Shown here piece after piece: positions 25,951-64,000 of a DNA stretch of 64,000 nt. The notes beneath the pieces were generated by a model. It was not told the origin of the DNA. It saw only the letters and a list, made by a program, of their open reading frames with translations, and made no database searches. Position 1 is the stretch's first letter; each line of letters opens with the position of its first letter. Source of the stretch: Candidatus Omnitrophota bacterium (GTDB lineage Bacteria > Omnitrophota > Gorgyraeia > Gygaellales > Profunditerraquicolaceae); the NCBI GenBank assembly GCA_003598135.1, contig QZKA01000027.1:20788-84787 (forward strand), given 5' to 3'. A program made the position numbers and the translations under genes.

Positions 25951-25953
25951 ACG

Positions 25954-31165: not shown

Positions 31166-31228
31166 AAGAGGCCTACGGGGTTTTGTGTTACCATAGTGCG
31201 CATCTTAAAAAAGAAAGCATAGACGACG

Positions 31229-36703: not shown

Positions 36704-36876
36704 AGCCATTTCTGCAGCATAAAAAGCTTTTAAAAGTTCATAACGTATGGGATAATAATAAGTTAAATACCTTTTAAAACAAAGAATCTTTTAGAAAAAT
36801 GCGGCTGTACGGTTAATAGGGATAAACAGGCGCGTTGCTGGTTTATAATAAATTTTGCTTTGTAGAGGAGCCTAAA

Positions 36877-38565: not shown

Positions 38566-38661
38566 TATTTTAGAATTCTGGCCACACCTTGGACTAAAGC
38601 AATAGGCGGTAGGCGCATAACGGCAAATTCTCAACACCTTCAAAAATTATTTGATTGTACT

Positions 38662-42724: not shown

Positions 42725-42740
42725 CGCAAGGAGCCCGGAG

Positions 42741-46907: not shown

Positions 46908-46910
46908 CGT

Positions 46911-48915: not shown

Positions 48916-50069
48916 TGAAAATAGCCGATATAAAGGCGGTCGTAGTAACCCATGTGACTATTTCAGAGCCTTCTTTGGCTGAAGTATACGGCCAGTGTCA
49001 CGCAATAGCCGACTTTTTAAAAGAAAATGCGCAAGAGCTACTTTTTATCCGTCATCCGCTTAACGGAAAATTTTGCTCCCGGGCAGAACGATTCTCAAAA
49101 GATACCGTTGTCCCAACTGATACGGGCAAGAATACTGCTTCGGGGATAATGAGATACATCGCCGATGTTTTGACTACCCTGAAGGTAACATACTCGTCAA
49201 GCAAAAGCTGGGATGTGTTCATCGGCGTAAATAGCCTTAATGCATTCAGCGGAATTCTGCTTAAGCGGATGAAGAAGGTAAAGCGGGTTATTTTCTATAC
49301 TGCAGACTACGTTCCGTTACGTTTTAAGAACAGGATTATGAATTCAACATACCATTGGTTTGATAGGTTTTGCATAAGGAACGCTGATTTTGTCTGGAAT
49401 ATTTCTCAGGCCCAGGTTGCGATAAGGCGTACACAAGGCGTTTCAGATGCGCACAATATTCATGTGCCCCACGGCATAGATACGGAAAAGATAAAGCCCC
49501 AGCCAGTTGAGAATATAGACAGGTTCAGCTTTGTTATCGCAGCCAACCTTACCCGGGCTTTCAATCATACGCTTATTCTGGATGCATTTAGCGAGACGGT
49601 AAAACGGATACCTCACGCCAGGTTATTTATTGTCGGTACAGGTGAGTCAGAACAAGAGATTCAACATTACATCAATCTAAAAAATATAGAAAATTCAGTT
49701 TTTATGGAGGGTTGGATGCCTCATGAGAAATTACTCGCTTTTCTATCGCGCTGCGGGGTAGGGATAGCCATTTATACTTCTGAGTGCAGTTGGACTAATT
49801 TCTCCGATTCTTTTAAAACCAAGGAATACCTCGGTTGCGGCTGCCCTGTTATTATTTCCGGCGCCCAAGGCGCCATTAGTGAGGCGAAAGAAAGCAATGC
49901 CCTTATCGTTGTAGAGCAGACAAAAGACTCCCTCTCGCAGGCAATGTTGAAAATGCTGCAAGACGAAACGTTCTATATGCAATGCCGTAAGAACGCAATT
50001 AATTTCATGAAAAACCTTGATTGGCGCGCGATTTACGGGCGCAGCCTCAAGTTTCTTAATTCAAACTAA
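48912..50069 (+). CDS. GT4-family (GT-B fold) glycosyltransferase
   Basis: C-terminal E..K motif region (EGWMPHEKLLAFLSRCGVGIAIYTS...KTKEYLGCGCPVIIS), typical of retaining GT4 enzymes. Confidence 0.6.
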   Translation: MMKIADIKAVVVTHVTISEPSLAEVYGQCHAIADFLKENAQELLFIRHPLNGKFCSRAERFSKDTVVPTDTGKNTASGIMRYIADVLTTLKVTYSSSKSWDVFIGVNSLNAFSGILLKRMKKVKRVIFYTADYVPLRFKNRIMNSTYHWFDRFCIRNADFVWNISQAQVAIRRTQGVSDAHNIHVPHGIDTEKIKPQPVENIDRFSFVIAANLTRAFNHTLILDAFSETVKRIPHARLFIVGTGESEQEIQHYINLKNIENSVFMEGWMPHEKLLAFLSRCGVGIAIYTSECSWTNFSDSFKTKEYLGCGCPVIISGAQGAISEAKESNALIVVEQTKDSLSQAMLKMLQDETFYMQCRKNAINFMKNLDWRAIYGRSLKFLNSN

Positions 50070-50073
50070 GGAT

Positions 50074-51507
50074 ATGGACACACGCAGGGTAGTTTTATTC
50101 AATGCGCCGGTCTGCCAAAGCAAGAAAGACGAGATAGAGGAGGGTAATGAACACTTGCGTATCGGCATCGCTTCAATAGCGGCATATTTGAAAAGCAAAG
50201 GTGTTTCAGTCTTGATGATAGATACCGAAGATTTACCCAGCATTAAAAAGATGCTACGGGTCTTCTCTCCTCAATTCGCCGGACTTCCGGCATATACCTG
50301 CGAGGTGTATGATACCGCTAGAACGGCTAAGATGGTGAAAGAGATAGTACCAGAGTCCAGAATTGTAGTAGGAGGCCCGCATCCTAGTGCGCTTCCGGAA
50401 GAGACGCTGCGCGAATTTCCCGTGTTTGATCTGGCCGTTATCGGTGAAGGGGAAAAGACTTTTTATGAAATCGTGCGAGGGGATACGCGGATTGAGGAGC
50501 TCAAAGGGGTTGCATATGCCAGAAACGGTTCAATTTATGTTAATCCTAAAGCGGGTCCTTTAGAGTCTCTGGACGCGCTTCCGGATCCGGCCTGGGACCT
50601 CTATAACCTGGTTCGTTATAAGAAAATTTTTTGGGGTAAAACACGCAATGCGTTTAAAATTGTAAAAGATAATGATATGCTGTTTCTGCCAATTGAGAGT
50701 ATGCGAGGGTGTCCTTTTGAATGCCTCTTTTGTTTCCGTTTAAATGACAGGAGCGTACGCTATAAGTCACCTTTGCGGGTAGCAGAGGAGCTAGAGCGTG
50801 GCATCGAACAGTTTAATGCAGGCAGGTTTTATTTCGTTGATCCTACTTTCGGTATCAATAAGCAATACACACTTGAATTGTGTGATTTGATAGTAAAGAA
50901 AAGGCTGCAGGAAAGAATCGGCTGGGAAGTAAGCTCAAGGGTAGATGTGATGGATGAGGAATTATTGAAGAGCATGAAAAAGGCAGGGTGCGATACTATC
51001 GGTTTCGGGATAGAATCAGGCAACGATGACGTCCTTGAACATACAGGAAAGCATACGAATAAAAAGATGATCCTTGATGTCATAAGACTTTGCAATAAGA
51101 TCGGGATAACCGTAGGCAGCACTTTTATTTTCGGCCATCCGCATGAGTCCAAGCAAAGAATAAATGAAACCATCAAATTTGCAAGGAGCCTGCCTATTGC
51201 TACCGCAAGTTTCGCTATTATGGTCCCTTTCCCAGGCACAAAGATATATGAAATGGCCAAACAGGACCTCGGAGGATTCAGGATTCTGACAAAACAGTGG
51301 GATGCCTACGGCAAACAGGTAGGGATGGCTATGGAATTAGAAAATGTTCCCCAAAAGGAATTATTAAAGTTGCAAGCCAAGGCATACATTTATTTTTATT
51401 GCAGTTTTCGCAGGATTGCATTTCTTTTGCGTCATCTTACGTTTGCAAGGGCGCTGTATGCTTTTAAAAGATCCTTGTTTTTATTACGCGTTGATAAAAG
51501 ATCTTAA
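50074..51507 (+). CDS. Cobalamin-binding (class B) radical SAM protein, copy 4
   Basis: B12-binding N-terminus (RVVLFNAP...IGIASIAAYL) and MRGCPFECLFCFR. The start at MDTRR has an AAGGA RBS. Confidence 0.85.
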   Translation: MDTRRVVLFNAPVCQSKKDEIEEGNEHLRIGIASIAAYLKSKGVSVLMIDTEDLPSIKKMLRVFSPQFAGLPAYTCEVYDTARTAKMVKEIVPESRIVVGGPHPSALPEETLREFPVFDLAVIGEGEKTFYEIVRGDTRIEELKGVAYARNGSIYVNPKAGPLESLDALPDPAWDLYNLVRYKKIFWGKTRNAFKIVKDNDMLFLPIESMRGCPFECLFCFRLNDRSVRYKSPLRVAEELERGIEQFNAGRFYFVDPTFGINKQYTLELCDLIVKKRLQERIGWEVSSRVDVMDEELLKSMKKAGCDTIGFGIESGNDDVLEHTGKHTNKKMILDVIRLCNKIGITVGSTFIFGHPHESKQRINETIKFARSLPIATASFAIMVPFPGTKIYEMAKQDLGGFRILTKQWDAYGKQVGMAMELENVPQKELLKLQAKAYIYFYCSFRRIAFLLRHLTFARALYAFKRSLFLLRVDKRS

Positions 51508-51552: not shown

Positions 51553-52584
51553 ATGCTTAAAATAGGAATAATCGGGGCAGGCGGTTGGGGCCAGAATTTG
51601 GTGCGTGTATTTAGTCAGCTTCCGAATGCGCAGGTCTTAAGCATATGCGATTCTAATGCAAGCCGTTTAGAGTTCATAAAATCAAAATATCACCCTTTAA
51701 AGAGCGCTACGGATTATCGCGAGCTTCTTAAGGACGCCGAGATTGATGCAGTGGTAATTGCAACTTCTGCGGCGAGCCATTTCCCGATCGCCAAAGATGT
51801 ACTCACGCACAACAAGCATGTATTTGTAGAAAAGCCGCTGGCCCTCTCGTCAGCTGAGTGTGAAACGCTCATTACGATGGCTCAAGGCCGGCATTTAACG
51901 CTGATGGTAGGGCATACGTTCCTCTACAATCCCGCTGTCCGCAAGGCTAAAGAATACCTGGAAAAGAAATACTTAGGAGACATTTATTATATTTACACGC
52001 AACGGCTTAACTTAGGCATAGTCCGCAGGGACGTGAATGCGATGTGGAATTTTGCTCCTCATGATATTTCTATCATCATGTATCTTTTGGATAAGCTTCC
52101 TTCGGCGGTTTCTGCCCGAGGGCTTTCCTATATCCAGGAGAATATTGAAGACGTGGTATTTTTGAACCTCGATTTCCCCGGAGGCGCTTCCGCGCATATC
52201 CATATCAGCTGGTTGGATCCGAATAAAACGAGAAAGGTAACGATTATCGGCAGCGAAAGGATGATTGTCTACGATGACATCAACTCCGATGCCAGGATCC
52301 AGATTTACGACAAGGGGATTACGAAAAAGGCGAACGTCTCTCTTGAAGAATTCAATTCCTACGGCCAGTTCCAGCTTATTCATCGCGCAGGAGACGTGCT
52401 TATCCCTAAGGTAGATACCACAGAAGCGCTGCAGACAGAAGCTGAGCATTTCGTCGATTGTATCATCAATAAGAAAAAGCCGCTTTCTGACGGGACTAAT
52501 GGCCTTGCGGTCGTAAAGATCCTTGAAGCAGCAGACAGGTCCATAAAGGCAGGCGGCACAGTACAGCAGGTTACCTGGAGGTAG
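51553..52584 (+). CDS. Gfo/Idh/MocA-family oxidoreductase, copy 3
   Basis: LKIGIIGAGGWGQNLVRVF and EKPLA motifs. Confidence 0.8.
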   Translation: MLKIGIIGAGGWGQNLVRVFSQLPNAQVLSICDSNASRLEFIKSKYHPLKSATDYRELLKDAEIDAVVIATSAASHFPIAKDVLTHNKHVFVEKPLALSSAECETLITMAQGRHLTLMVGHTFLYNPAVRKAKEYLEKKYLGDIYYIYTQRLNLGIVRRDVNAMWNFAPHDISIIMYLLDKLPSAVSARGLSYIQENIEDVVFLNLDFPGGASAHIHISWLDPNKTRKVTIIGSERMIVYDDINSDARIQIYDKGITKKANVSLEEFNSYGQFQLIHRAGDVLIPKVDTTEALQTEAEHFVDCIINKKKPLSDGTNGLAVVKILEAADRSIKAGGTVQQVTWR

Positions 52585-53652: not shown

Positions 53653-54381
53653 ATGAAAAAAACAAGACTTTCTGTCGTAACTCCCTGCTACAACGAAGAA
53701 GATTCTCTTCCTATGATATTTTACCGCTTTGATCTGTTAGAAAGGCTTATGAATGACTCTGCCTACGATATCGAGTTCGTCATAGTTGATGACGGAAGCC
53801 GCGATAAGACCCCTACAATGCTGGCGTTAAAATACGGCAATAAGCAAAACGTCAAGATAATTACACATCCTACTAACAAAGGATTCGGCGCTGCCCTTAA
53901 AACCGGGCTGCGTGCGGCAAGCGGTGAGGTGGTGGTAACTATTGATGCAGACACCAACTATGACCACGAGGAGATTCCGGAAATTCTTGAGCATCTGTCT
54001 GAAGGGGTAGACGTAGTGACCGCATCGCCTTTTCATCCGGAAGGTAAATGGAATTATCCTGTTCACCGGTTTATTCCTAGCCGTACCGTAGTAGCGCTGT
54101 ACAAGTTCGTATTAAGAGGCAAGGCGGATTTTATGCATACTATGACCAGCGGTTTCCGGGTGTACCGTAAGTATGTCCTCGCAGATATTATGCCCGAAGC
54201 CAATGATTTTCTAGCCACCGCAGAATTGCTTGTCCGGGCATTGCTTAAGGGTTACCAGGTGAAGGAATATCCTACTGTGTTATACGAAAGAAAATTCGGC
54301 GTATCGAAACTAAAGACTTTTAAGACCACAATGAGCCATTTACGCTTTATGTGGAAGATTTACAGGGGGAAAATCCGATAA
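53653..54381 (+). CDS. GT2 glycosyltransferase, Dpm1-like
   Basis: LSVVTPCYNEEDSL...FVIVDDGSRDKT and DADTN. Confidence 0.8.
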   Translation: MKKTRLSVVTPCYNEEDSLPMIFYRFDLLERLMNDSAYDIEFVIVDDGSRDKTPTMLALKYGNKQNVKIITHPTNKGFGAALKTGLRAASGEVVVTIDADTNYDHEEIPEILEHLSEGVDVVTASPFHPEGKWNYPVHRFIPSRTVVALYKFVLRGKADFMHTMTSGFRVYRKYVLADIMPEANDFLATAELLVRALLKGYQVKEYPTVLYERKFGVSKLKTFKTTMSHLRFMWKIYRGKIR

Positions 54382-54383
54382 CT

Positions 54384-56258
54384 ATGTGCGGTATCTGTGG
54401 CATATACCATTTTTCGGGCAAAAGGGTAGATAAGGAATCTCTAGTTGCGATGAGGGATATTATGATCCATCGCGGTCCGGATGGGGAGGGTTTGTTCCTT
54501 GAAAAAAATGTGGGCTTGGGCCACAGGAGACTAAGTATTATCGATATTTCAGGTGGAGCCCAACCGATGTTTAACGAAGATGGCTCGATTGTTCTGGTTC
54601 TTAACGGAGAGATCTACAACTACCTGGAACTAAAAGAAGACTTAAAAAAACGTAACCACGTATTTAAGACCTACAGCGATGCCGAAGTAGTCCTGCATCT
54701 TTACGAAGAATATGGACAAAACTTCCTGCCGTATCTAAATGGAATGTACGCGTTTGCGCTTTATGATAAAAGGAAGAAAAGGCTGTTTATGGCCCGGGAC
54801 CCGTTCGGGATAAAACCCCTTTATTATAAAAGGACCGGCGAAGGATTGCTTTTCGCTTCAGAAATCAAGGCATTGTTGCAATACCCGGGAGAGCGGCCTT
54901 GTATGGATAAGGAAGCATTGATGGATTATTTGACCTTTCAGTATGTGTTAGGAGAAAAAACTTTTTTTAAAAATATCAAAAAAATACTTCCCGGGCATAT
55001 GGTAGTAATTAACAATAGCGAATTCAGCATGAGTCGTTTTTGGGACTTGCCGGCGCAGGAAGAAACAAATCTTAGCGAAGGAGAGTGTCAAGAAGCGCTC
55101 TTATTAGCCTTGAAGGATTCAGTAAGGATTCAGCTGCGAAGCGACGTGCCTGTGGGGAGTTACTTAAGCGGCGGTATCGACACATCTTCAATAGTTTGCT
55201 TAGCTTCCAGGCATTTAGGATATCAACTCAAGACTTTTACTGCCGGATTTAAGGAGGGGGGGGTGTATGATGATACGGAGTTCGCGCGTGTAACCTCCCG
55301 ATACGCCGATACGCGACATTATGAAATTTTTCCGACTTCCGCTGACTTCAGTAATTCTTTTGATAAAATAATATGGCATTTGGATGAGCCTGTTGCAGCC
55401 CAAGGGATATTTCCGCAATATATGGTCTCAAGGCTCGCCAGTGAAAATGTAAAGGTGGCTTTGGGAGGCCAGGGGGCAGATGAAATTATCGGAGGGTATA
55501 CCCGCTACTATTTGCTCTACTTAGAAAGACTACTCCAAGAAAGGATAAGCGGAGTAAAAGACAAAAGCATTTCTTCCTTTCCTTTAGAAGGCGCTCTTTC
55601 GAATATCTCACAGTTGACAAGATATATCCCTCTCTTGCACTATTTTTTTAAAGAAAATTTATTCGGTCCGGTTGAAGAGAGATATTTCAGGTTGATTTGC
55701 AGGTGCGAAAACTTAAATAGCATTTTGTCGGAAGAATTTTTGCAGGACTCCAAGAATTATTCTCCGTTTGAAAGTTTCCTTGAGGTTTTTAAAGGAGGCG
55801 GATATACTCAACTGCTTAATAGGGTACTGCGCTATGAAACAAAAGCGTGGCTTCCGGCATTGCTTCAGGTAGAGGATAGGGTGAGCATGGCTTGCTCTCT
55901 GGAATCACGGGTTCCGTTTCTTGATACGCGTATTGCCCAGTTGATTTTCGGCATGCCGGTCAGCATAAAGTTCAAAAACGGGCAGACCAAATCTATCCTG
56001 CGCAAAACCGTAAAAGGAATTATTCCTGATGCAATCGATGAAAGGAAAGACAAAATAGGGTTTCCGGTCCCGCTTTTTAAATGGTTAAAAAACGACTTAA
56101 ATGATTTTCTTCATGAGAGGGTTGGCGATACTTGTTGTCTCAATGGAATTTTTAAACCCGCTGCCATTCATAAGATTATTGAAGGCAGTCGCGAGTTTGA
56201 CCGTGATGTCTGGGGCATTATGTGTCTGGAATCATGGTACCGGCAGTTTTTTCTTTAA
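54384..56258 (+). CDS. Asparagine synthase (glutamine-hydrolysing)-like amidotransferase
   Basis: N-terminal nucleophile MCGICGI and the PP-loop SGGIDTSS of the AsnB family. Length 625 aa. Confidence 0.8.
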   Translation: MCGICGIYHFSGKRVDKESLVAMRDIMIHRGPDGEGLFLEKNVGLGHRRLSIIDISGGAQPMFNEDGSIVLVLNGEIYNYLELKEDLKKRNHVFKTYSDAEVVLHLYEEYGQNFLPYLNGMYAFALYDKRKKRLFMARDPFGIKPLYYKRTGEGLLFASEIKALLQYPGERPCMDKEALMDYLTFQYVLGEKTFFKNIKKILPGHMVVINNSEFSMSRFWDLPAQEETNLSEGECQEALLLALKDSVRIQLRSDVPVGSYLSGGIDTSSIVCLASRHLGYQLKTFTAGFKEGGVYDDTEFARVTSRYADTRHYEIFPTSADFSNSFDKIIWHLDEPVAAQGIFPQYMVSRLASENVKVALGGQGADEIIGGYTRYYLLYLERLLQERISGVKDKSISSFPLEGALSNISQLTRYIPLLHYFFKENLFGPVEERYFRLICRCENLNSILSEEFLQDSKNYSPFESFLEVFKGGGYTQLLNRVLRYETKAWLPALLQVEDRVSMACSLESRVPFLDTRIAQLIFGMPVSIKFKNGQTKSILRKTVKGIIPDAIDERKDKIGFPVPLFKWLKNDLNDFLHERVGDTCCLNGIFKPAAIHKIIEGSREFDRDVWGIMCLESWYRQFFL

Positions 56259-56264: not shown

Positions 56265-57794
56265 ATGACCATATTTATACAAACTTCCGACGATGCGCAG
56301 GATTTAAAATATGTAGCATTTATTTGCGAGACATTTAAACACGTTACCAAGACGGCGGTTGAGTTCAGGTTTCGAAAAGAAAACGATCCCATAGAATCGC
56401 AAGATTGTCTTATCAATTACGGGTTGCCGCCGAAAGAAGGCTGTATCAATATCCCAAGGGTGCGCTCTCGCATGCAGGAAGGTTATTGTTACGGCAAGTG
56501 CGATAGTTCATTCTTTACCGATGCGCGCCTGAGCGATACCGCACTACCCGTATACCGGCAGCTTCTCAGTAACCAGCAGGTCAGGGGTAGCGTAGTTTTT
56601 TCTGAGGCAAGCACCAAAGCGCCCTTAATTAGCAGCGCAGGCAGCGGGACCAAGGGAATCAATGTCCATTTCGACTTTTTTTACAACATCTTTTGTTTTT
56701 TGGGGAATATCCCTGATATTGCCTTTGAAGAGAAGCACGGGATTGCACACTCTTACGCAAAATTTATACGCCGAGATCAGGCGTTTTACGGTAAACCTTG
56801 GGTCAATTATTTTTTTATCATATTTCAGTCGTTGATAGAAGCGGTTTCAGGTAAAAGCCTTGATTGCCAAAAGTCGCCTCGCCGTTTAGGTTTTCAGGTT
56901 CTTATGATGTATGATGTCGATGCGATAAGAAAGACGCCGATCATGCAGGCAAAACAACTTTTGTTTATTGTCATTAACCTTTTCCGATCCCTTTTTGAAA
57001 TGGATTTTAAGAAATCCCGTGAAGAGGGGAAGCGTTTTTTTCGCTTTATTTTTTTTCGTTGTAATTATTTATGTTTTGAAGTAATTGCCTCAGGTGAGGA
57101 GTCGTTAAAGGTCCCTTCAATATTTAATATTTATCAAAAAATTAGATACGGGAGGATAAAGAAAATAAAAAGCCTGATCTTTGACCCCGCATATGATATT
57201 TCCAAAGAAGCGGTTTTAAAGGATTCGATTAAAATGTTGATTCGCAAAGGAAAAGGTATTGGGTTGCACTCAGGCTATAATTCCTATGCCTCAAGCGGTG
57301 AACTGTTATTACAGAAGTCCATGCTTTCTCGGACCCTAAATTATTCGGTAAGGGGGTTACGGCAGCACTGGTTGAGGTTTTCTGTTAAGAATACCTGGAA
57401 AGCGCAAGAGGAGGCAGGGTTTTTGTATGATGCCAGTTTTGGTTTTAACGATGCGATAGGGTTCAGGTCCGGGCTGGCGCATCCTTACTTTCCCTATTCG
57501 CACGAAGAAGGGAGAAGTTACAGGATTTTGGAGGTTCCGCCTGTATTGATGGATTCAACGCTCATGCATTATGGCAATCGTACAGAGGAGAGTGCATTTA
57601 CAGAAGCGGTCTGCGTGCTTAAAGAGGTGAAAAAATTCGCCGGAACCTGCGTGATGGTTTGGCATCAGGAATCTTTCTGTCGGGATTATGGATGGGGGAA
57701 CCTGTTGAAACGAATCCTTGGCTGGGTTGCCGATAGCGGAGGCAGCTTTATTTCAGAACAAGAGCTACTATCGCAATACAATCTTTTACATTAA
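56265..57794 (+). CDS. Hypothetical protein; the C-terminal half is weakly similar to a CE4/NodB-type polysaccharide deacetylase (DUF3473-like)
   Basis: Motif order YDVDA ... GLHSGYN ... HPYFPY ... VWHQ loosely follows the CE4 motif series (DxD, HSxxN, RxPY, ...H). The N-terminal roughly 200 aa are unrecognised. Confidence 0.3.
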   Translation: MTIFIQTSDDAQDLKYVAFICETFKHVTKTAVEFRFRKENDPIESQDCLINYGLPPKEGCINIPRVRSRMQEGYCYGKCDSSFFTDARLSDTALPVYRQLLSNQQVRGSVVFSEASTKAPLISSAGSGTKGINVHFDFFYNIFCFLGNIPDIAFEEKHGIAHSYAKFIRRDQAFYGKPWVNYFFIIFQSLIEAVSGKSLDCQKSPRRLGFQVLMMYDVDAIRKTPIMQAKQLLFIVINLFRSLFEMDFKKSREEGKRFFRFIFFRCNYLCFEVIASGEESLKVPSIFNIYQKIRYGRIKKIKSLIFDPAYDISKEAVLKDSIKMLIRKGKGIGLHSGYNSYASSGELLLQKSMLSRTLNYSVRGLRQHWLRFSVKNTWKAQEEAGFLYDASFGFNDAIGFRSGLAHPYFPYSHEEGRSYRILEVPPVLMDSTLMHYGNRTEESAFTEAVCVLKEVKKFAGTCVMVWHQESFCRDYGWGNLLKRILGWVADSGGSFISEQELLSQYNLLH

Positions 57795-57803: not shown

Positions 57804-58985
57804 TTGAAAACAAAGAATGTATTAATACTGGATGGCTTTACCAAGCATTCCCTCCCCTTTGTTCGGTCCCTGGGAAAAGAGGGGATCAGGATTACCCTCG
57901 GTTCTCCGGTGAAGTACCTGTCATTATCTTTTTATTCTAAATTCGTAAACAGGTTTTTCAGGTATCCCGAACCCGAAAGTAATCCCCAAGGCTTTGTTGA
58001 AGCCTTATTAGAAGAAGTCAAAAAGACCCATTATGACGCTATTTTTCCTTTAAGGGATGCTTCTACGTATCTTGTCTCCCGCCATAAGAAAGAGTTCCTC
58101 AAGCATACGAATACCGCTGTTGCCGATTTTAATCAGATGGAGATCGCTTCAGATAAATCTAAGACTATAACCTTTGCGCGAGGGCTGGGCGTAGCAATAC
58201 CCGTAACAAAAACTATCGATGAACAGGGTTTTTCCAGCCTTTGCGATTCAGACTTTCCCGCGGTTTTGAAGTTACCGATGAAATCCGGAGGGGTAAGGTA
58301 TGTAAACTCAAAGAGTGAGTTTCTCGGAGCTTTCAGGGCATTACGCAGCGAAAAGAGCGTTCTTTCTACCGGGCGAGTGTTGTTACAGGAATATATACCC
58401 GGACAGGGCTATGGCTACTTTGCGCTTTGTGACCAAGGCAGGGTTATTGCGCATTTCATGCATAAAAGAATCAGGGAGTATCCGGTAACTGGCGGCATCA
58501 GCGCGGCAGCCGAAAGTGTTTACGAAGATGGCCTGAAGTCTATCGGAGAATTAATCTTGAGCAGGCTACGGTGGCACGGGGTTATCATGATGGAATTCAA
58601 GCGCGATGCGCGCGATAACTCTTTTAAGCTTATGGAGCTCAATCCTAAATTCTGGGGGTCACTGGATTTAGCTATCGCCTGCGGGGTGGATTTTCCTGTT
58701 CTTGCCTATCGTCTTGCAACGCAGGAAGCATTAATTCCCCCTTTAAGCTATAACGTGGGAACGAAATTCCGATGGCTTATTCCGTGGGAGATCCTGCATG
58801 TATGTGCGAAGCCCGCTTCTCTGCCGGCTTTTATACGTGATTTTAAAGAAAAGAATGTTTTCTATGACATAGACTACCGGGACTTAAAACCTAACCTTTT
58901 TCAATGGCTTCTATTTTTAGGGTATGCGCGATACTATAAAGGCAAGCTGAAATTCCCTCACGGAAGGCCGCCATGTATACGGTAG
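57804..58985 (+). CDS. ATP-grasp domain protein (carboxylate-amine ligase-like)
   Basis: ATP-grasp signatures (LKLPMKSGGVRYV, LLQEYIPG, MELNPKFWGS). A TTG start at 57804 is the first in-frame start after the upstream stop; the start is uncertain. Confidence 0.55.
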   Translation: MKTKNVLILDGFTKHSLPFVRSLGKEGIRITLGSPVKYLSLSFYSKFVNRFFRYPEPESNPQGFVEALLEEVKKTHYDAIFPLRDASTYLVSRHKKEFLKHTNTAVADFNQMEIASDKSKTITFARGLGVAIPVTKTIDEQGFSSLCDSDFPAVLKLPMKSGGVRYVNSKSEFLGAFRALRSEKSVLSTGRVLLQEYIPGQGYGYFALCDQGRVIAHFMHKRIREYPVTGGISAAAESVYEDGLKSIGELILSRLRWHGVIMMEFKRDARDNSFKLMELNPKFWGSLDLAIACGVDFPVLAYRLATQEALIPPLSYNVGTKFRWLIPWEILHVCAKPASLPAFIRDFKEKNVFYDIDYRDLKPNLFQWLLFLGYARYYKGKLKFPHGRPPCIR

Positions 58986-59605
58986 ATTTTCATATTCATT
59001 CACGGTACTCTTTCGACGCGCTTTCTTCCATAGACGGATTGCTCTGCAAAGCAAAGAAGTGCGGTTTAGACGCAATCGCGATTACCGACCACAATACGAT
59101 ACGGGGAAGCGTTGAGGCTGCGCGAAGAAACACAGACCCGGGATTTTTGGTAATCTGTGCTTCTGAGGTTGCTACGGAATTCGGGGATATGATCGGTTTG
59201 TTTCTCAATAAAGAAATCACCTCGCGAAAGTGTGCTGATGTAATCGAGGAAATAAAAGGGCAGGGTGGAGTAGTATTGATTCCGCATCCGGACTTACGCA
59301 GGCTGCCGTTATCCATTCTTAAGTCCGCCGATTTGATAGAACTTTACAGTGCCCGCAGTCCTGCGAAAGAGGAATTACGAATTGCGCAGATTGCCGAGGA
59401 GTGCTCTTTGATACCTGTAGGAGGTAGTGACGCGCACTTTGTTTCCGATGTGGGTAGCTGTCTGAATACGTATGAGGAAAAAATAGCCAACATGGAATCG
59501 CTTAAAGCGGTCGTTACCCGCAGTGCTCCCGATGTCAAGATACTGAAGAAAGCGTCGTTTCTTAAATTTTGCGCCAGCCAGCTCATAAAGCATATTAAAT
59601 CATGA
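58973..59605 (+). CDS. PHP-domain metal-dependent phosphoesterase
   Basis: N-terminal DFHIHSRYSFDA...AIAITDHN is the His-rich PHP motif. Length 210 aa. Confidence 0.65.
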   Translation: MYTVDFHIHSRYSFDALSSIDGLLCKAKKCGLDAIAITDHNTIRGSVEAARRNTDPGFLVICASEVATEFGDMIGLFLNKEITSRKCADVIEEIKGQGGVVLIPHPDLRRLPLSILKSADLIELYSARSPAKEELRIAQIAEECSLIPVGGSDAHFVSDVGSCLNTYEEKIANMESLKAVVTRSAPDVKILKKASFLKFCASQLIKHIKS

Positions 59606-60585
59606 AAACGCAATTATGGGACAGCCTTATTAAGGTTTTGGGCCGGGTGATTGCCAGGTACTATTTAAAAAAGCCTTCATTTGAGTATATTATTTCCACT
59701 CGCTACCCAAGCGCATCCGCGTTTTTTTTAGACTCCTTGAATCAATTGATGAGGGGCTTGGGTTCAACGTTTGTGTTTGGCCTGACTACCGTGACGTTTG
59801 AGTTGACAAATGTATGTAACCTAAAATGCTCTATCTGTCCGGTAAATTCTGGAATGAAGCGGAAAAGGGGCCTTTTTCCGCTCAAGGAGTACAAAAGAAT
59901 AATTGATGCAAATCCTCTTATAAGAAGGGTAGGTTTGGTAAATTGGGGGGAGCCGCTTCTGCATCCGGAATTCGTAGAATTTATTACGTATGCTTCTTCT
60001 AAGGGCATCCATACGTCAACCACGACTAATGCAGTATTACTTAACGAAGGCAAATGTAAAGAAATAATAAGTAGCGGGTTAGATATTATGAGATTTTCCA
60101 TGGATGCAGTCGGAAAAGAATACGAGAAAATACGAGGGCATAATTATCTAGAAGTAAAACAGAATATCGAGCGCTTCATAGAATATAGGAACCGAAACAA
60201 CCCGCGGATGAAGATTGAAATAACCGCAGTGATTGGTAATGATAACGAAGCGGACATCGGGGCGCTTAAAGAAGAGTGGAAAGGCAAAGTCGATTTCATC
60301 AATTTTCAACCGTTGTTGTTATTCCAAAAGCATTCAAGGCAACAGGCGTGCAGGGAATTATGGAGGAGCCTCTACGTGCTCGTTGACGGAACCGTTATTC
60401 CCTGTTGCGCTGATTATGAAGGATTGCTTGATGTAGGGAATGCGTTTACTCAGGATTTAGAGAAAATATGGAACGGCAGGCTGATTCGGGAACTAAGGCG
60501 CGGGCATTTATCTAGGAGGTTTCAAGCTACATGTGCTCTTTGCTCGGAATTTTCGTCCAGCCGGATAGAAAGCAGGTTTCAATAA
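59602..60585 (+). CDS. Radical SAM protein with a C-terminal Cys-rich (SPASM/twitch-like) region
   Basis: CNLKCSICPV is the CxxxCxxC cluster motif, near the N-terminus. C-terminal cysteines sit at CCADYEGL...CALCSE. Confidence 0.7.
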   Translation: MKTQLWDSLIKVLGRVIARYYLKKPSFEYIISTRYPSASAFFLDSLNQLMRGLGSTFVFGLTTVTFELTNVCNLKCSICPVNSGMKRKRGLFPLKEYKRIIDANPLIRRVGLVNWGEPLLHPEFVEFITYASSKGIHTSTTTNAVLLNEGKCKEIISSGLDIMRFSMDAVGKEYEKIRGHNYLEVKQNIERFIEYRNRNNPRMKIEITAVIGNDNEADIGALKEEWKGKVDFINFQPLLLFQKHSRQQACRELWRSLYVLVDGTVIPCCADYEGLLDVGNAFTQDLEKIWNGRLIRELRRGHLSRRFQATCALCSEFSSSRIESRFQ

Positions 60586-60588
60586 GAT

Positions 60589-62061
60589 ATGAAAATTTTG
60601 CTTATTTTTCCTCCGCTTGTTCATAAACAGATATATGACCTTCCTGAGTTTGTTGAAAATGAAGCGTCTTTGCATCCTCCTTTAGGCTTAATGTCTTTGG
60701 CTGGCTACCTGCAACGCTTCAGTAGGCATGAAGTGAGGATCCTTGATGCCAATGCGCAAAAAATGGAGTATCGTCAATTAAGTCAGGCCCTGCAGGAATA
60801 TGGGCCGGATCTGGTAGGGATAACCGTAAATACCACCTTTTTATACGATGCAGCGTTAACTGCCAAAACGGTGAAGGAAGTAGACAGAGATATCCATGTC
60901 TGCCTTGGCGGCGCCCATGTGAATTTGTATCCAAACCAGACCATGCGCCTGGAAGGGGTTGATTCAGTGGTGGTAGGTGACGGAGAATTATCCTTCATGA
61001 AGTTGGCCGATTCTCTTAGCGAAGAAAAAAATGGGTCAGGCATTGACGGCGTTTTCATAAGTAAGACAGACAGAGATAAAAAAATAAATCCCATGAATCC
61101 TGCCTATTATATCGATGACCTCGATTCTTTGCCGTTTCCTGCGCGCGGCCTGGTAAACCCACAAGATTATTACTCGGTTTTTTCTTCAGGAAAGACAAAA
61201 TTGATGACTTCACTCGTTACCAGCAGGGGGTGTCCTTTCAGGTGTTCTTTTTGCCAGCTGCCTTTTGAGAAACTCAGGATGCGCTCCCCAAAGAATGTTA
61301 TTGAAGAAATAGAAGAGTGTGTCGAAAACGGTTATGCAGAATTTGATATTTACGATGACACATTCAATTTTTCCATAGACAGGGTAATTGAGATATGCAA
61401 GCTTATTTGTGAGAAGAAGTTTAAGATCGAGTGGTCATTCAGGGGAAGGGTGGATAGGGTTAATAGAGAAATGTTGCAATGGGCAAAAAAGGCAGGATGC
61501 AGCCGGATTCAGTTCGGAATTGAGTCTGGGTCACAGCGGATATTATCCGCATACAACAAAGGAATATCCTTAAGCGATGTCTATGAGGCATTCAGGCTTA
61601 TGCGCCAAGTCGGTATCGCTTCTTTTGCCTATTTTATTGTGGGAGGGCCTGGTGAGACACTGCAAGATTTCGAGGAGTCGCTTACGTTGATTAAAAAGAT
61701 AAAGCCCGACTACATCACCTTTTCCATCTTAAAACCGATGCCCGGAACAGCCATATACGACTTAAGCCTAAAAAAAGGGTTACGAAAAAATGATTACTGG
61801 GAGGGGTTCGCACGTAATCCTACAAAAGACTTTATCCCTCCGCTATGGGAGGAGAACTTTACTCTTAGTGAATTGATAGCGTTGCGTAACCGTGCGCTGA
61901 GAAGTTTTTATTTCCGCCTTTCGTATATCGCACGCAGGGCAACTACTATAAAGAGCCTCAATGAACTAACGAATATGGTCAAATCGGGAATTTTACTTTT
62001 TAGGGATATCTGCGTAAGTCCGATATTCAAGGCCTCTATACAACATGTTAAGAAAACTTAA
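60589..62061 (+). CDS. Cobalamin-binding (class B) radical SAM protein, copy 5
   Basis: B12-binding N-terminus (ILLIFPPLV...PLGLMSLAGYL) and TSRGCPFRCSFCQLP. Confidence 0.85.
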   Translation: MKILLIFPPLVHKQIYDLPEFVENEASLHPPLGLMSLAGYLQRFSRHEVRILDANAQKMEYRQLSQALQEYGPDLVGITVNTTFLYDAALTAKTVKEVDRDIHVCLGGAHVNLYPNQTMRLEGVDSVVVGDGELSFMKLADSLSEEKNGSGIDGVFISKTDRDKKINPMNPAYYIDDLDSLPFPARGLVNPQDYYSVFSSGKTKLMTSLVTSRGCPFRCSFCQLPFEKLRMRSPKNVIEEIEECVENGYAEFDIYDDTFNFSIDRVIEICKLICEKKFKIEWSFRGRVDRVNREMLQWAKKAGCSRIQFGIESGSQRILSAYNKGISLSDVYEAFRLMRQVGIASFAYFIVGGPGETLQDFEESLTLIKKIKPDYITFSILKPMPGTAIYDLSLKKGLRKNDYWEGFARNPTKDFIPPLWEENFTLSELIALRNRALRSFYFRLSYIARRATTIKSLNELTNMVKSGILLFRDICVSPIFKASIQHVKKT

Positions 62062-63196
62062 AAAGAGGATCGATAGTTTTATCGCCCATCCTAACTCCCA
62101 GGACGAAGGAATATTTTCGCTTCTGTGGCAGGCAATGCCATATTACGTCTCGAGGAAGGGCTTTAGCCTTTTCCCTAAAATAATTTATCTGGTTGTCAAT
62201 AGCGTCTGCAATCTTCATTGTAAAATGTGCGATGTGGGAATGAATGATAAGGAGACCTATTTTTATAAGAACATGGTGGCAGATGCGCGCCAGGAACTCG
62301 ACCCCACCCGGCTTAAAGCACTTTTTGAAGAAGTAAAAAAGTTCAAACCGCTTATTTCCATCACCTCAACCGAGCCACTTTTGTACGGTCCTTTGCTGGA
62401 AGTCTGTGAATATGCTACAAAGAAATGCGGCTTAAAAGTTTCCATAAATACCAACGGACTGCTATTGGAGGATATGGCAGAAGGACTTCTTCGTGCCGGA
62501 ATTACAAGGATTGTAGTTTCACTGGACGGGCCGCCTGAGGTTAACGATATGATACGCGGTTTTTCCGGTGGTTTTAACCGCGTTTTGGCCGGAATGCGCA
62601 AAATCGACCGGATTAAAAAACAGAGAAAGCTGCGATACCCGCGTTTTGCCACTATCCATGTAGTCACCAATTATAATTATGATTCGCTTGACCGCATCCC
62701 GGATTACTTCAGCGGTATTGACATAGAAAAATTTATTTTTTCGCATATGACATTCATTACGCAGGAGATGGCTGATGCCCATAACCGCATATATGCGCAT
62801 ATCTATCCCATTACGCACTCCTGTATCGGGGGAGGGATTGATCCGAAAAAGGTTGATGTTGAGGTACTCTGGGACCAGCTTAATAAGGTCAAAAGAATGC
62901 TTAAAAATAAAGCATTCTTCAGCCCGACAATGGATAAAGAGGATTTGCAGAAATACTACCTTGAGCCTGATAGTTTTGTCGGCGGACACCGTTGCTATAT
63001 TCCCTGGGGGGTAAGCCAGATTACTGCCAGCGGCGATGTGATTGGCCTTACCCGCTGTTTTCATTACCCGATGGGCAATATATATGAGAATAGCTTTAAG
63101 GAGATATGGAACGGAGATAAATTGAGAAGATTCAGGAAGGATTTACGCGCAAAAGGTGCTTTTGTTGCCTGTAGCCGTTGCCGCGGAGTGTTATAG
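62045..63196 (+). CDS. Radical SAM protein with a C-terminal Cys cluster
   Basis: CNLHCKMCDV is the CxxxCxxC cluster motif, near the N-terminus. C-terminal cysteines sit at CFHYP...CSRCRG. Confidence 0.7.
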   Translation: MLRKLKKRIDSFIAHPNSQDEGIFSLLWQAMPYYVSRKGFSLFPKIIYLVVNSVCNLHCKMCDVGMNDKETYFYKNMVADARQELDPTRLKALFEEVKKFKPLISITSTEPLLYGPLLEVCEYATKKCGLKVSINTNGLLLEDMAEGLLRAGITRIVVSLDGPPEVNDMIRGFSGGFNRVLAGMRKIDRIKKQRKLRYPRFATIHVVTNYNYDSLDRIPDYFSGIDIEKFIFSHMTFITQEMADAHNRIYAHIYPITHSCIGGGIDPKKVDVEVLWDQLNKVKRMLKNKAFFSPTMDKEDLQKYYLEPDSFVGGHRCYIPWGVSQITASGDVIGLTRCFHYPMGNIYENSFKEIWNGDKLRRFRKDLRAKGAFVACSRCRGVL

Positions 63197-63198: not shown

Positions 63199-63927
63199 AT
63201 GCGCGAGCTTTCTTTGGTTATTCCTTTATACAATGAAGCAGATAATATCAGCGAATTGATTGAAACACTATCCCGTGCGTTGGATAAAGAGAAAATAGAT
63301 TACGAGCTTGTGCTTGTGGATAATGGCTCATGCGATGCGACAGGAGACTTGATTGAAAAATACTCAAGGACCAACAATCGCATACGTAAAGTAACAGTGG
63401 TTAAGAATCGTGGCTATGGCTGGGGGATTATTAAAGGCCTGGAAGGGGCTTGCGGTGAGTATCTCGGTTTTATGTGCGGAGACGGCCAGATAAAGCCGGC
63501 AGATGTCGTAAAGGTATATAGAAAATTAACAGAAAAACGCCTGGATTTATGTAAAGTCAGGAGGGTTTTCCGGGAAGACGGGTTGCAACGTAAAGTCATA
63601 TCGTTTTTCTATAACGCGATTTTCGGCGTTCTTTTTAAGGCACACACCGATGATATAAACGGCACCCCCAAGATATTTGCGCGCCGCTTATATGAGGCGC
63701 TTAAGCCCGTTTCAAAAGATTGGTTCATCGATGCGGAGATCATTCTGAAGTGCGCGCAATTGCGCGGTAAGGTTGGGTCAGTACCGGTAACATTCTACAA
63801 GAGGAAGTGCGGCTCAACCAATGTGGGGCTGGCTACGATTATGGAGTTCCTTAAAAACATTACATTATATTATTTCATGCCGGAGAAATTCAGAAGGGAA
63901 CATGGAGACGTCACTAAAAGGCTGTAG
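63199..63927 (+). CDS. GT2 glycosyltransferase, Dpm1-like
   Basis: LSLVIPLYNEADNI...LVLVDNGSCDAT. The start at 63199 falls 3 nt after the upstream stop. Confidence 0.75.
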   Translation: MRELSLVIPLYNEADNISELIETLSRALDKEKIDYELVLVDNGSCDATGDLIEKYSRTNNRIRKVTVVKNRGYGWGIIKGLEGACGEYLGFMCGDGQIKPADVVKVYRKLTEKRLDLCKVRRVFREDGLQRKVISFFYNAIFGVLFKAHTDDINGTPKIFARRLYEALKPVSKDWFIDAEIILKCAQLRGKVGSVPVTFYKRKCGSTNVGLATIMEFLKNITLYYFMPEKFRREHGDVTKRL

Positions 63928-64000
63928 AGTCCTGGTTACGGGCATAAACGGTTTTATCGGCTCTCATCTAGCGCGGGAGTTGATTGCGACCGGAGCAGAG
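63902..64000 (+). CDS. NAD-dependent epimerase/dehydratase (SDR); 5' end only, the gene continues past the window
   Basis: METSLKGCRVLVTGINGFIGSHLARELIATGAE is a Rossmann GxxGxxG N-terminus. Confidence 0.55.
   Translation, partial: METSLKGCRVLVTGINGFIGSHLARELIATGAE

Follow-up and report, generated by a model that had tools for sequence, protein, structure and literature searches.

Three adjacent radical SAM genes in a glycan operon of an uncultivated Omnitrophota bacterium probably mark the junction of two sugar-tailoring modules

Within the window, the 64,000-nt stretch of DNA from the anaerobic, uncultivated Candidatus Omnitrophota bacterium to which all positions refer, the ORF list contains three adjacent radical SAM (rSAM) genes on the plus strand at 59602-60585 (rSAM 1), 60589-62061 (rSAM 2) and 62045-63196 (rSAM 3). 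They encode a twitch-type enzyme, a B12-domain enzyme and a second twitch-type enzyme, in that order. The gene in front of the triad overlaps rSAM 1 by 4 nt, rSAM 1 and rSAM 2 are separated by 3 nt, and rSAM 2 and rSAM 3 overlap by 17 nt. The preliminary description of consecutive genes with overlapping or abutting ends was thus confirmed, and the three motifs it had named, CNLKCSIC, CPFRCSFC (B12 type) and CNLHCKMC, were found in the translations of the respective genes. All Pfam domain scores of the three proteins exceeded the gathering scores. The rSAM profile was covered almost from end to end (positions 2-156, 2-165 and 4-158 of 166 for rSAM 1, 2 and 3), showing that each protein has the full rSAM core. 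Transmembrane (TM) segments were predicted in none of the three, and none reached the cut-off of a curated NCBIfam family.

The first protein (327 aa; family SP1, 290 representative clusters at E<=1e-30) consists of a conserved N-terminal extension of about 60 aa, an rSAM core (PF04055, 65 bits) and a C-terminal twitch-like auxiliary-cluster domain with four cysteines (SPASM PF13186, 53 bits). Its cluster cysteines (C72/C76/C79), the auxiliary cysteines C250, C268, C311 and C314 and the N-terminal residues Y21, L22 and P25 are invariant in the family. The third protein (383 aa; family SP3) combines an rSAM core (68 bits) with a domain of the same kind (SPASM, 44 bits). Here the cluster motif (C55/C59/C62) and the auxiliary cysteines C317, C338, C376 and C379 are invariant, so that the Cys-rich tails described previously correspond to SPASM/twitch domains with four family-invariant cysteines each. 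The AF2 model of rSAM 3 (pLDDT 91) has only two N-terminal helices ahead of the barrel. Its best PDB sequence match was BlsE (1e-10), and its nearest folds were SkfB, DesII, SuiB, BlsE and BtrN. Since SkfB, SuiB, CteB and anSME scored as well as DesII, BlsE and BtrN, the comparison of the modelled fold does not discriminate between a sugar, peptide, lipid or cofactor substrate. The central protein, rSAM 2 (490 aa), is a class B enzyme with a B12-binding domain (PF02310, 74 bits) and an rSAM domain (100 bits; C215/C219/C222). Cobalamin binding is predicted from the Pfam domain. In sequence comparison, its N-terminal domain could be aligned with TsrM, OxsB and TokK, all in cobalamin-bound form. 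The nearest folds of its AF2 model (pLDDT 91) were AprD4 (best, TM 0.70/0.75), TsrM, MgmA and OxsB, and by sequence only the rSAM core aligned with AprD4, which is not known to depend on cobalamin. The best NCBIfam matches of rSAM 2 (BchE 165, HpnJ 164 and ApyD 151 bits) all lay far below the cut-offs.

The triad belongs to a tightly packed, single-strand operon of at least 45 kb, which extends from 23.6 kb past the end of the window and is encoded on the plus strand. It starts after tyrS with a region (23607-34189) of SDR genes, ManC, UDP-glucose dehydrogenase, RmlA/RmlD/RmlB, a Wzx flippase with 12 TM-like segments and two GT2s according to Pfam; RmlA scored 442 bits on TIGR01207 (cut-off 361). 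The following part (34186-51507) contains six further rSAM genes, raising the total to at least nine. By Pfam, four of them are of the B12 type (34186-35697, 38662-39969, 44480-45871 and 50017-51507) and two of the SPASM type (45852-46907 and 47860-48915); a DUF362-ferredoxin gene lies at 41465-42724. Mutual identity of the rSAM paralogues is just 20-47%. Directly upstream of the triad we found genes for an AsnB-like glutamine amidotransferase (54351-56258; 496 bits on TIGR01536, cut-off 267, and 483 bits on the XrtA/PEP-CTERM amidotransferase model, below 817), a 509-aa protein whose C-terminal part resembles VimE-like sugar deacetylases (56265-57794; NF053580 55 bits, below cut-off), an ATP-grasp ligase (57804-58985; ATPgrasp_Ter 35 bits, PRK06849 83 bits, below cut-off) and a PHP-domain phosphoesterase (58973-59605; PHP 42 bits, PHP_C 35 bits). 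From the 4-nt overlap, the PHP gene is predicted to be translationally coupled to rSAM 1.

Downstream, the expected GT2 and SDR genes were both present. The GT2 (63199-63927) is a short soluble protein of the polyprenyl-phosphate-sugar synthase type (ArnC/PpgS/PgfS-like) with 78 bits on PF00535, 66 bits on PgfS and 60 bits on ArnC, the latter two below cut-off, and no predicted TM segment. Its likelier start is the ATG at 63199, preceded by GGAG, rather than the TTG at 63178 of the mechanical ORF, so that it abuts rSAM 3 instead of overlapping it. The SDR gene (63902-64000) is cut by the window end; its N-terminus resembles NDP-hexose 4,6-dehydratases and contains an in-frame TGxxGFIG Rossmann motif. 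An identical JGI contig (L001) carries the full-length SDR (319 aa), followed by an RfbH-family 3-dehydrase (NF011936, 570 bits; cut-off 423), a PMT_2 GT-C and an 11-TM protein.

Comparison of related loci, sampled from metagenomic and partly redundant sequences, revealed different partners for each of the three families. SP1 members usually reside beside a B12-rSAM in GT2/GT-C cassettes, and a B12-rSAM lay within two genes in five of seven independent loci. SP1-like genes adjoin B12-rSAMs in L086, L088, L172 and L174. The family pairs with various B12-rSAMs, in the reverse of the triad order. A compact Omnitrophica operon (L172) has the order GT2, B12-rSAM, SP1-like, one further gene, PMT_2, and L088 the order GT2, B12, SP1-like, SDR. 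A GT2 directly precedes the rSAM 2 orthologue in 7 of the 14 closest orthologue loci, and the GT2 in front of the closest orthologues is polyprenyl-phosphate-sugar-synthase-like. The commonest partner of SP3 is an AsnB-like gene: of 44 loci with a length of at least 6 kb, 22 have one within 6 kb of the SP3-like gene, and 14 have a homologue of the 509-aa protein within this distance; any B12-rSAM occurs in just nine and an SP1-like gene in none. Among 26 long loci, SP3 is the sole rSAM in 19, and a B12-rSAM is adjacent (<=300 nt) in three. The partner association occurs in two different gene arrangements; five loci (L141, L093, L124, L138 and L085) have AsnB, deacetylase-like, FemAB-like, DegT-like, unknown (~550 aa), SP3 and methyltransferase genes in this order.

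We know of no characterised enzyme in any of the three triad families. Among the nearest solved relatives are sugar-acting rSAM enzymes for each protein. BtrN, the butirosin 2-deoxy-scyllo-inosamine dehydrogenase, is the archetype of twitch-domain rSAMs with an aminocyclitol/sugar substrate. Like rSAM 1 and rSAM 3, whose C-termini align with its C-terminal region, it combines the rSAM core with one C-terminal auxiliary cluster bound by four cysteines (C...C...CxxC), and it belongs to a carbohydrate pathway with adjoining DegT-family enzymes. However, the alignment is confined to the C-terminal ~65 residues (E about 1e-5), rSAM 1 and rSAM 3 are 60-110 aa longer with N-terminal extensions, the twitch model NF033640 gave 61-71 bits where 170 are required, and BtrN serves an aminoglycoside rather than a cell-envelope glycan. 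For rSAM 3, the nucleotide-sugar enzymes BlsE (cytosylglucuronate decarboxylase) and DesII (TDP-4-amino-4,6-dideoxyglucose deaminase) showed 16-17% identity and TM scores of about 0.56-0.58, values that peptide-modifying rSAMs match equally; TIGR04466 gave 55 bits (cut-off 400). The class B counterparts of rSAM 2 are the C-methyltransferases GenK/GenD1 and AprD4/AprD3, which deoxygenate apramycin at C3'. AprD4 shares the N-terminal Rossmann-like domain and the rSAM barrel and acts on an aminosugar, and AprD3 is an SDR, a class also encoded near rSAM 2, but identity is 20% and NF033070 gave 110 bits against 500.

On the pathway level, HpnI-HpnK-HpnJ transfer GlcNAc to a hopanoid, deacetylate the sugar and contract its ring to a cyclitol ether in a B12-rSAM reaction. 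The present operon repeats this logic, with a GT2, a deacetylase and a class B rSAM that would act on a lipid-linked aminosugar, whereas the HpnJ score of rSAM 2 is below the cut-off of 578 and the hopanoid genes shc, hpnH and hpnG are absent. The short Dpm1/ArnC/PpgS-type GT2 and the PMT_2 multi-TM glycosyltransferase in one operon resemble the pairs ArnC/ArnT, GtrB/GtrV and PpgS/Rv3779. In contrast to our operon, the known pairs lack rSAM genes. No curated model was reached, and the accompanying SDR and aminotransferase-fold genes differ from ArnA/ArnB; the aminotransferase-fold gene encodes an RfbH-family 3-dehydrase, which points to a 3,6-dideoxyhexose branch.

Three rSAM genes in a row are not unprecedented: the polytheonamide (proteusin) cluster, which includes a precursor gene, encodes two B12-rSAM methyltransferases and one further rSAM (PoyB/PoyC/PoyD). 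A comparable system, in which SPASM-type rSAMs and a B12-rSAM C-methyltransferase modify a ribosomal peptide (RiPP), is very improbable here, even though many weak NCBIfam matches were RiPP maturases (ApyD, WgkB, AlbA, YhhB and CcpM) and SkfB, SuiB and CteB were among the nearest folds. The twitch domains have four auxiliary cysteines instead of the seven of peptide-modifying SPASM enzymes. Between 53.6 and 63.9 kb, neighbouring genes are spaced by -31 to +9 nt and every small ORF lies within a large gene, leaving no free-standing precursor ORF, in agreement with the preliminary description. An RRE/PqqD domain was detected neither by Pfam nor in the AF2 model of rSAM 3, and the locus contains no protease or ABC exporter. 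Moreover, in over 100 related loci across phyla the surrounding genes are sugar genes (GTs, SDRs, aminotransferases and flippases). The RiPP reading is therefore largely refuted, consistent with the glycan context assumed initially. Hardly more credible is a role in cofactor or tetrapyrrole maturation (BchE/NirJ/AhbD/tungsten-cofactor maturase-like) with the genes in this operon by happenstance: the highest-scoring NCBIfam matches were indeed W_rSAM_matur, NirJ1 and BchE, but they scored 86-165 bits where the cut-offs are 380-650, no tetrapyrrole or molybdopterin genes occur nearby, and the families reside in glycan loci. Tailoring of a lipid instead of a sugar appears improbable as well. The target would then be the polyprenyl carrier, the acyl chains of lipid A or some other membrane lipid, and the chemistry would resemble that of HpnJ, HpnR, Tes or GDGT methylase. 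Such a role would agree with the weak rSAM 2 matches to HpnJ and TIGR04072 (lipid-biosynthesis B12-binding/radical SAM, 141 bits), with GDGT-MAS as best PDB sequence match of rSAM 1 (5e-8), with 269 bits on HpnJ for the B12-rSAM of L172, with the lipid-linked sugars on which the partner GT2 and GT-C act and with fatty-acid modifying genes flanking the SP1 homologue of L173. Yet every score was far under cut-off, the triad proteins lack TM segments, the ~40-kb operon is devoid of lipid-biosynthesis genes, and the conserved partners are mostly sugar-nucleotide enzymes.

The preliminary description had regarded three radical enzymes probably acting in series on one intermediate as exceptional. 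Such a pathway on a single sugar, for example twitch oxidation, B12-dependent C-methylation and a further radical reaction, after which the GT2 would load the lipid carrier, is unlikely but agrees with gaps and overlaps of just -17 to +3 nt and with the order kept in L001, which is identical, and in L002, an Omnitrophota MAG of 83% identity. In L083 the closest non-trivial rSAM 2 relative (54% identity) adjoins an SP3 homologue (47%), and upstream lies a 509-aa-like gene. Against it, the triad recurred only in the two near-identical relatives, with no occurrence outside them among 80 B12-anchored and 80 SP3-anchored loci; the families partner separately, most SP3 homologues have no other rSAM nearby, and the SP1/B12 order is flipped elsewhere. 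The whole operon is packed as tightly as the triad. With nine rSAM genes among ~40 locus genes, 26% of randomly shuffled orders contain a run of at least three; adjacency alone is therefore not beyond chance expectation and not telling by itself, but the enrichment of rSAM genes is the real signal. The triad is also not special in number, as 20 of 52 related loci contain at least three rSAM genes (maximum 10). A series of three as one unit is thus not borne out, while the recurring pairs (rSAM 2/3 in L083, SP1-like/B12-rSAM in five of seven loci) leave room for consecutive action of two enzymes. Tight packing and recurring pair adjacencies would also fit consecutive action on one substrate.

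The triad is probably not one obligate three-step unit but the junction of two separately conserved sub-modules in a cell-envelope glycan operon, whose genes include those for sugar-nucleotide enzymes, GTs, a flippase and a GT-C. Because no triad protein reached a curated family cut-off, we infer all substrates and reactions of the three enzymes, which would comprise C-methylation or rearrangement of unusual sugars and their oxidation, decarboxylation or deamination in BtrN/BlsE/DesII-like steps. One module would comprise rSAM 3, the AsnB-like amidotransferase encoded upstream, the 509-aa protein with its deacetylase-like region and an enzyme that forms amides, which is of the ATP-grasp type here and FemAB-like in other loci. 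This module would remodel the N-acyl or carboxyl groups that decorate an amino or uronic sugar. The step catalysed by rSAM 3 may be an alcohol oxidation, decarboxylation, deamination or epimerisation. The other would consist of rSAM 1, the B12-rSAM, the short GT2 and the GT-C encoded downstream, and yield a polyprenyl-phosphate-linked, radically modified sugar, either C-methylated or rearranged/dehydrated as by HpnJ or AprD4, which the GT-C would pass on outside the cytoplasmic membrane. We found no description of multi-rSAM glycan loci in the literature; they are frequent in related uncultivated anaerobes. The operon as a whole would make several unusual sugars, with radical SAM chemistry serving many steps.

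The ORF list places three consecutive radical SAM (rSAM) genes on the plus strand exactly where a preliminary description of this DNA had located them. The first enzyme, rSAM 1 (59602–60585), consists of 327 amino acids with the motif CNLKCSIC, the second, rSAM 2 (60589–62061), of 490 amino acids with CPFRCSFC and the third, rSAM 3 (62045–63196), of 383 amino acids with CNLHCKMC. Pfam Radical_SAM and SPASM domains were found in rSAM 1 and rSAM 3, and B12-binding and Radical_SAM domains in rSAM 2. The profile PF04055 scored 65, 100.5 and 67.9 bits in rSAM 1, 2 and 3 (cut-off 29.5) and at least 155 of its 166 positions were covered. The CxxxCxxC motifs were invariant in the family alignments of all three proteins, and the AF2 models of rSAM 2 and rSAM 3 reached a pLDDT of 91. 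As all matches exceeded the gathering score and covered the rSAM profile almost completely, the concern that one of the enzymes might lack the full rSAM fold was not borne out. At the junctions, described before as overlapping or abutting, rSAM 1 overlaps the PHP gene before it by 4 nt and is separated from rSAM 2 by 3 nt, and rSAM 2 and rSAM 3 overlap by 17 nt. The expected GT2 gene followed by an SDR gene is also present. The GT2 probably starts at the ATG at 63199 behind a GGAG sequence rather than at the mechanically assigned TTG at 63178; the SDR start lies at about 63902, and this gene, in which a Rossmann motif is encoded, is truncated at the window end.

The JGI metagenome contig identical to the window (L001) carries shorter gene calls at 9266–9997 and 11637–12608, which trim rSAM 1 to 243 and rSAM 3 to 323 amino acids. 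Both trimmed calls lose the CxxxCxxC motif, and a spurious 56-aa minus-strand gene occupies the gap. The long starts are favoured because the family alignments span the long N-termini. These annotation errors would mask the rSAM identity of the genes in some pipelines.

The C-terminal Cys-rich tails noticed in the first and third enzymes are conserved. Alignments of 28–29 homologues revealed four invariant cysteines beyond the SAM cluster in each protein (rSAM 1: C250, C268, C311 and C314; rSAM 3: C317, C338, C376 and C379). They follow the pattern CX(17-20)C ... CX2C, and the proteins end 4–13 residues past the CxxC. A full SPASM domain binds two auxiliary [4Fe-4S] clusters through the seven-cysteine motif CX9-15GX4C ... 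CX2CX5CX3C ... C. The twitch domain of BtrN, MoaA and SkfB is a truncated SPASM domain with one auxiliary cluster and about four ligands after the rSAM core. PF13186 (SPASM) matched rSAM 1 with 53 and rSAM 3 with 44 bits (cut-off 21.5). Assignment to the full SPASM subfamily was rejected, since four C-terminal cysteines are present instead of seven and the CX5CX3C part is missing. The C-terminal region of BtrN aligns with the C-termini of both proteins. Because of the four ligands, whose pattern fits a twitch domain, and this alignment, we call the predicted tails twitch-like, although rSAM 1 and rSAM 3 scored only 71 and 61 bits with the curated twitch model NF033640 (cut-off 170). The nearest solved structures by sequence are GDGT-MAS and BtrN for rSAM 1, and BlsE and BtrN for rSAM 3.

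In rSAM 2 the B12-binding profile PF02310 scored 74 bits (cut-off 32.1). Its nearest solved structures by sequence are AprD4 (rSAM core only), MgmA, TsrM, OxsB and TokK, of which TsrM, OxsB and TokK align via the N-terminal B12 domain. When the AF2 model was compared with the PDB, AprD4 was nearest (TM 0.70/0.75), followed by TsrM, MgmA and OxsB; TokK also matched. With a B12-binding domain fused to the core, rSAM 2 is a candidate class B, i.e. predicted cobalamin-dependent, rSAM enzyme; AprD4, its best structural match, is not known to need cobalamin. All named class B equivalogs of NCBIfam (cut-offs 360–750) remained below their curated cut-offs in rSAM 2, with scores of 165 for BchE, 164 for HpnJ, 151 for ApyD, 146 for PhpK, 145 for BzaD, 117 for MgmA, 110 for AprD4 and 103 bits for HpnR. 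NCBIfam assigned no family to any of the three enzymes, the scores being nowhere near the cut-offs, nor to the rSAM 3 homologue of the related locus L141.

Every gene of the window lies on the plus strand. Housekeeping genes (pilins, secretin, RNase G, Obg, proB/proA, rpe, PGM, IspH and S1) continue up to tyrS (22399–23586). Among them is a tandem array of four paralogous type IV pilin-like genes (2531–5923), whose products of about 138 amino acids combine an FTL[IV]E prepilin motif with a Cys-rich C-terminus; genes for two minor pseudopilins follow ahead of PilO (8633) and secretin (9578). From 23607 a glycan operon runs uninterrupted to the window end and for at least 5 kb more on L001. It encodes SDRs, ManC, UDP-glucose dehydrogenase, RmlA/RmlD/RmlB, a Wzx flippase, several GT2s, one GT4, a NeuD/PglB-type acetyltransferase, WecB, an AsnB-like amidotransferase (54351–56258), a 509-aa protein with a VimE-like deacetylase region (56265–57794), an ATP-grasp ligase and a PHP phosphoesterase. 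The three rSAM genes are followed by the GT2 and, on L001:13314–18544, by genes for the 4,6-dehydratase-like SDR, an RfbH-family 3-dehydrase, a PMT_2 GT-C with at least seven TM segments and an 11-TM protein. The 3-dehydrase (L001:14270–15613) scored 570 bits with NF011936 (cut-off 423), and this RfbH equivalog points to a predicted 3,6-dideoxyhexose branch. An Arn-like (ArnC/A/B/T) reading of the GT2, SDR, DegT-fold and PMT_2 genes was dropped because the DegT-fold gene passes the RfbH cut-off, while the ArnA and ArnB models scored only 32 and 135 bits. Three paralogous GFO/IDH/MocA oxidoreductase genes (36835–37905, 42741–43754 and 51553–52584) each adjoin a B12-rSAM gene; their best match was UDP-GlcNAc 3-dehydrogenase at 189–207 bits, below the cut-off of 450. 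An Rfam scan of the window gave no matches. Promoter and terminator signals in the window were not enriched over shuffled sequences, so that a single transcript is neither backed nor contradicted.

The operon contains six further rSAM genes upstream (34186–51507), four of the B12 type at 34186, 38662, 44480 and 50017 and two of the SPASM type at 45852 and 47860. Together with the triad, at least nine rSAM genes are thus located within 30 kb. The paralogues are 20–34% identical to each other, apart from the two SPASM-type genes with 47%. This divergence is too high for a recent duplication as their source, and judged by sequence the paralogues are old. Set among them is a gene (41465–42724) for a DUF362 protein that ends in a 2x[4Fe-4S] ferredoxin domain and may be a dedicated electron donor to the rSAM clusters. 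The preliminary description had regarded three radical enzymes that probably act in series on one intermediate as unusual. A run of at least three occurred in 26% of random orders of nine rSAM genes among about 40 genes, so that significance attaches to the rSAM density and not to the adjacency by itself.

Co-conservation of the complete triad is narrow. An exact look-up of rSAM 2 gave no match. The representative protein P0001, identical to rSAM 2 of the window, led to JGI metagenome contig Ga0394679_019197, which is the identical contig L001, and an 83%-identical, fully syntenic contig (L002) belongs to the Candidatus Omnitrophota MAG GCA_040754255.1. Among the 80 genome loci described below, the rSAM – B12 – rSAM order with both specific flanking families occurred only on these two contigs; the co-conservation that the preliminary description had proposed to check did not extend beyond them. 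The rSAM 2 family itself is large, with more than 5000 matches at E<=1e-10 among the matches listed; matches at about 42% identity came from Omnitrophota, Patescibacteria, DPANN archaea and Brocadia. In 7 of 14 loci of the closest orthologues (36–43% identity) a GT2 gene of the Dpm1/ArnC/PpgS type lies directly upstream. Eighty genome loci were fetched with the B12-enzyme family profile and examined by tblastn and HMMs. Fifty-two of them were 12 kb or longer; at least three rSAM genes were present in 20 of these, at least four in 12 and ten in one. The 20 multi-rSAM loci are spread over Omnitrophota, DPANN, CPR and other anaerobes, and rSAM-rich glycan loci recur among uncultivated anaerobes. 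In seven loci (L015, L027, L033, L039, L065, L070 and L086), 5–10 B12-rSAM or SPASM genes per approx. 20 kb lie amid GT2, GT9 and PMT_2 genes; these loci come from Omnitrophota, Bathyarchaeia, Bacteroidales, Nanoarchaeota and, in the case of L027, an unclassified bacterial MAG. The closest non-trivial relative of rSAM 2 (54%), on locus L083, is followed by a 47%-identical rSAM 3 homologue, with a gene like that of the 509-aa protein upstream. Around L083:811–4339, the pair is preceded by genes for an FkbH-like/glyoxalase fusion of 750 amino acids, for the 84-aa product of an ORF that might be a carrier protein and for an LbH acyltransferase. These neighbours suggest an acyl decoration route unlike the ATP-grasp or FemAB versions.

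Members of the rSAM 3 family have about 380 amino acids and about 40% identity and occur in many phyla. Metagenomic loci were fetched with the rSAM 3 profile, and the 44 that spanned 6 kb or more were evaluated. Within 6 kb of the rSAM 3 homologue, an AsnB-like gene was present in 22 of the 44 loci and a homologue of the 509-aa protein in 14. WecB occurred in seven of the loci and any B12-rSAM in nine; the rSAM 1 family was found in none. The association with AsnB is not mere resampling of one lineage, because two different gene arrangements show it. In loci of at least 10 kb the rSAM 3 homologue was the sole rSAM in 19 out of 26 cases. The typical cassette elsewhere, found at L141:570–7832, L093, L124, L138 and L085, consists of AsnB-like, VimE-like deacetylase, FemAB-like and DegT-like genes, a gene for a conserved soluble protein of about 550 amino acids, the rSAM gene and a SAM methyltransferase gene. 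The FemAB-like gene is of the XrtA/PEP-CTERM type (136 bits, below the cut-off of 260), and in the window the ATP-grasp ligase occupies its place. The 550-aa protein has no Pfam or NCBIfam match and no counterpart in the window.

The rSAM 1 family is smaller, 290 of 1.84 billion representative clusters matching at E<=1e-30. A B12-rSAM gene lies at most two genes from the rSAM 1 homologue in five of seven independent loci, mostly upstream and so in the opposite order to that of the window. Genes for GT2, GT9 and PMT_2 repeatedly occur nearby. The clearest case is L172:5899–12720 (Omnitrophica GCA_016939375.1), where an AglJ/PpgS-like GT2 gene is followed by a B12-rSAM gene (HpnJ model 269 bits, below 578), the rSAM 1 homologue and genes for a 206-aa, a PMT_2-like and a 581-aa protein. 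Judged by gene content, it represents a predicted minimal form of a GT2/B12-rSAM/rSAM 1/GT-C cassette.

We infer that the operon product is a complex envelope glycan. Its sugar repertoire would include 6-deoxy sugars of the rhamnose type, an amide- or amidino-decorated sugar of the 2,3-diamino-uronic-acid type and the 3,6-dideoxyhexose branch. The triad enzymes are likely glycan-tailoring enzymes; the joint statement that they are, and that the triad is the junction of two cassettes, is somewhat more probable than not. In the first cassette, rSAM 3 would cooperate with AsnB, the deacetylase-like protein and the amide-forming ligase in decorating an amino or uronic sugar, performing a radical oxidation, decarboxylation, deamination or epimerisation of the BtrN/BlsE/DesII type. 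In the second, rSAM 1, the B12 enzyme, the short GT2 and the GT-C would act together on a sugar finally held by polyprenyl phosphate; the B12 enzyme might catalyse C-methylation of an unactivated carbon or an HpnJ-/AprD4-like rearrangement or dehydration. The DUF362-ferredoxin protein would be a candidate reductant. Our confidence in any specific reaction is low. That all three enzymes act in true series upon a single intermediate is unlikely, an idea kept alive by the pairwise rSAM adjacencies that recur.

Structure comparison leaves the substrate class undistinguished. The rSAM 3 model matched SkfB, DesII, SuiB, BlsE, CteB, BtrN, MoaA and viperin about equally (TM 0.5–0.6), and the search with the rSAM 2 model confirmed the fold; for neither model were sugar, peptide and lipid substrates separated. 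Tailoring of a lipid in place of a sugar is improbable. A system maturing a ribosomally made peptide (RiPP) would need a precursor, and the earlier statement that no small precursor ORF is apparent holds: intergenic distances range from -31 to +9 nt over 53.6–63.9 kb, and between 58.9 and 63.3 kb every ORF of at least 20 amino acids is nested within a large gene. The Pfam scan of the triad proteins detected no PqqD/RRE or other extra domain at E<=0.01. The N-terminal extensions comprise 45–65 amino acids, and in the rSAM 3 model two helices and no beta-sheet precede the barrel. No protease or exporter gene was found among the triad neighbours, and sugar genes were the neighbours in more than 100 related loci. 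The lack of room for a precursor and the absence of an RRE, a protease and an exporter, together with the sugar genes, make a RiPP maturase highly improbable. Cofactor maturation likewise has a very low probability. Named SPASM/twitch equivalogs (tungsten-cofactor maturase, NirJ, AhbD, PqqE, MftC, AlbA, BlsE and viperin) reached no NCBIfam cut-off, the best scores being 86 bits for rSAM 1 and 112 bits for rSAM 3 against 380, with others lower.

To our knowledge, sugar tailoring by rSAM enzymes is known almost solely from antibiotic pathways (BtrN, DesII, AprD4, GenK and BlsE). Sugar-modifying rSAM enzymes are a known kind, and the triad members fall in uncharacterised families within an rSAM-heavy cell-envelope operon. 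In the literature we found no description of rSAM-rich surface-glycan loci, no paper on a GT2 – B12-rSAM – twitch-rSAM – GT-C cassette and nothing on 'VimE'. The nearest report, from a different context, concerns groundwater Elusimicrobia in which as many as 13 rSAM genes lie next to nitrogenase paralogues (bioRxiv 10.1101/765248).

What is notable is the rSAM density of the whole locus rather than the triad, which is unremarkable in itself; as a lead, rSAM-rich glycan loci in uncultivated anaerobes are of more interest. By its gene neighbourhoods the triad divides into AsnB/deacetylase/amide ligase plus rSAM 3 and GT2 plus B12-rSAM, rSAM 1 and GT-C, a division that is testable, and the compact five- to six-gene operon of L172 is a far easier target for reconstitution than the 45-kb operon. 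The nine or more rSAM genes in one envelope glycan operon and the multi-rSAM loci (20 of 52) suggest that the surfaces of uncultivated microbes harbour a wealth of anaerobic sugar chemistry that is still uncharacterised. Tentatively, and as one joint proposal that we hold to be possible rather than probable, Omnitrophota, DPANN archaea, CPR bacteria, Bathyarchaeia and other uncultivated anaerobes may build surface glycans with many rSAM enzymes, using a pathway not described before, a recurrent cassette of a short GT2 (polyprenyl-P-sugar synthase type), a B12-rSAM, a twitch rSAM and a GT-C, in which a lipid-linked sugar would be C-methylated, ring-contracted or deoxygenated before transfer outside the membrane. 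If so, the triad families would be the first members of new rSAM families that modify sugars by new reactions.
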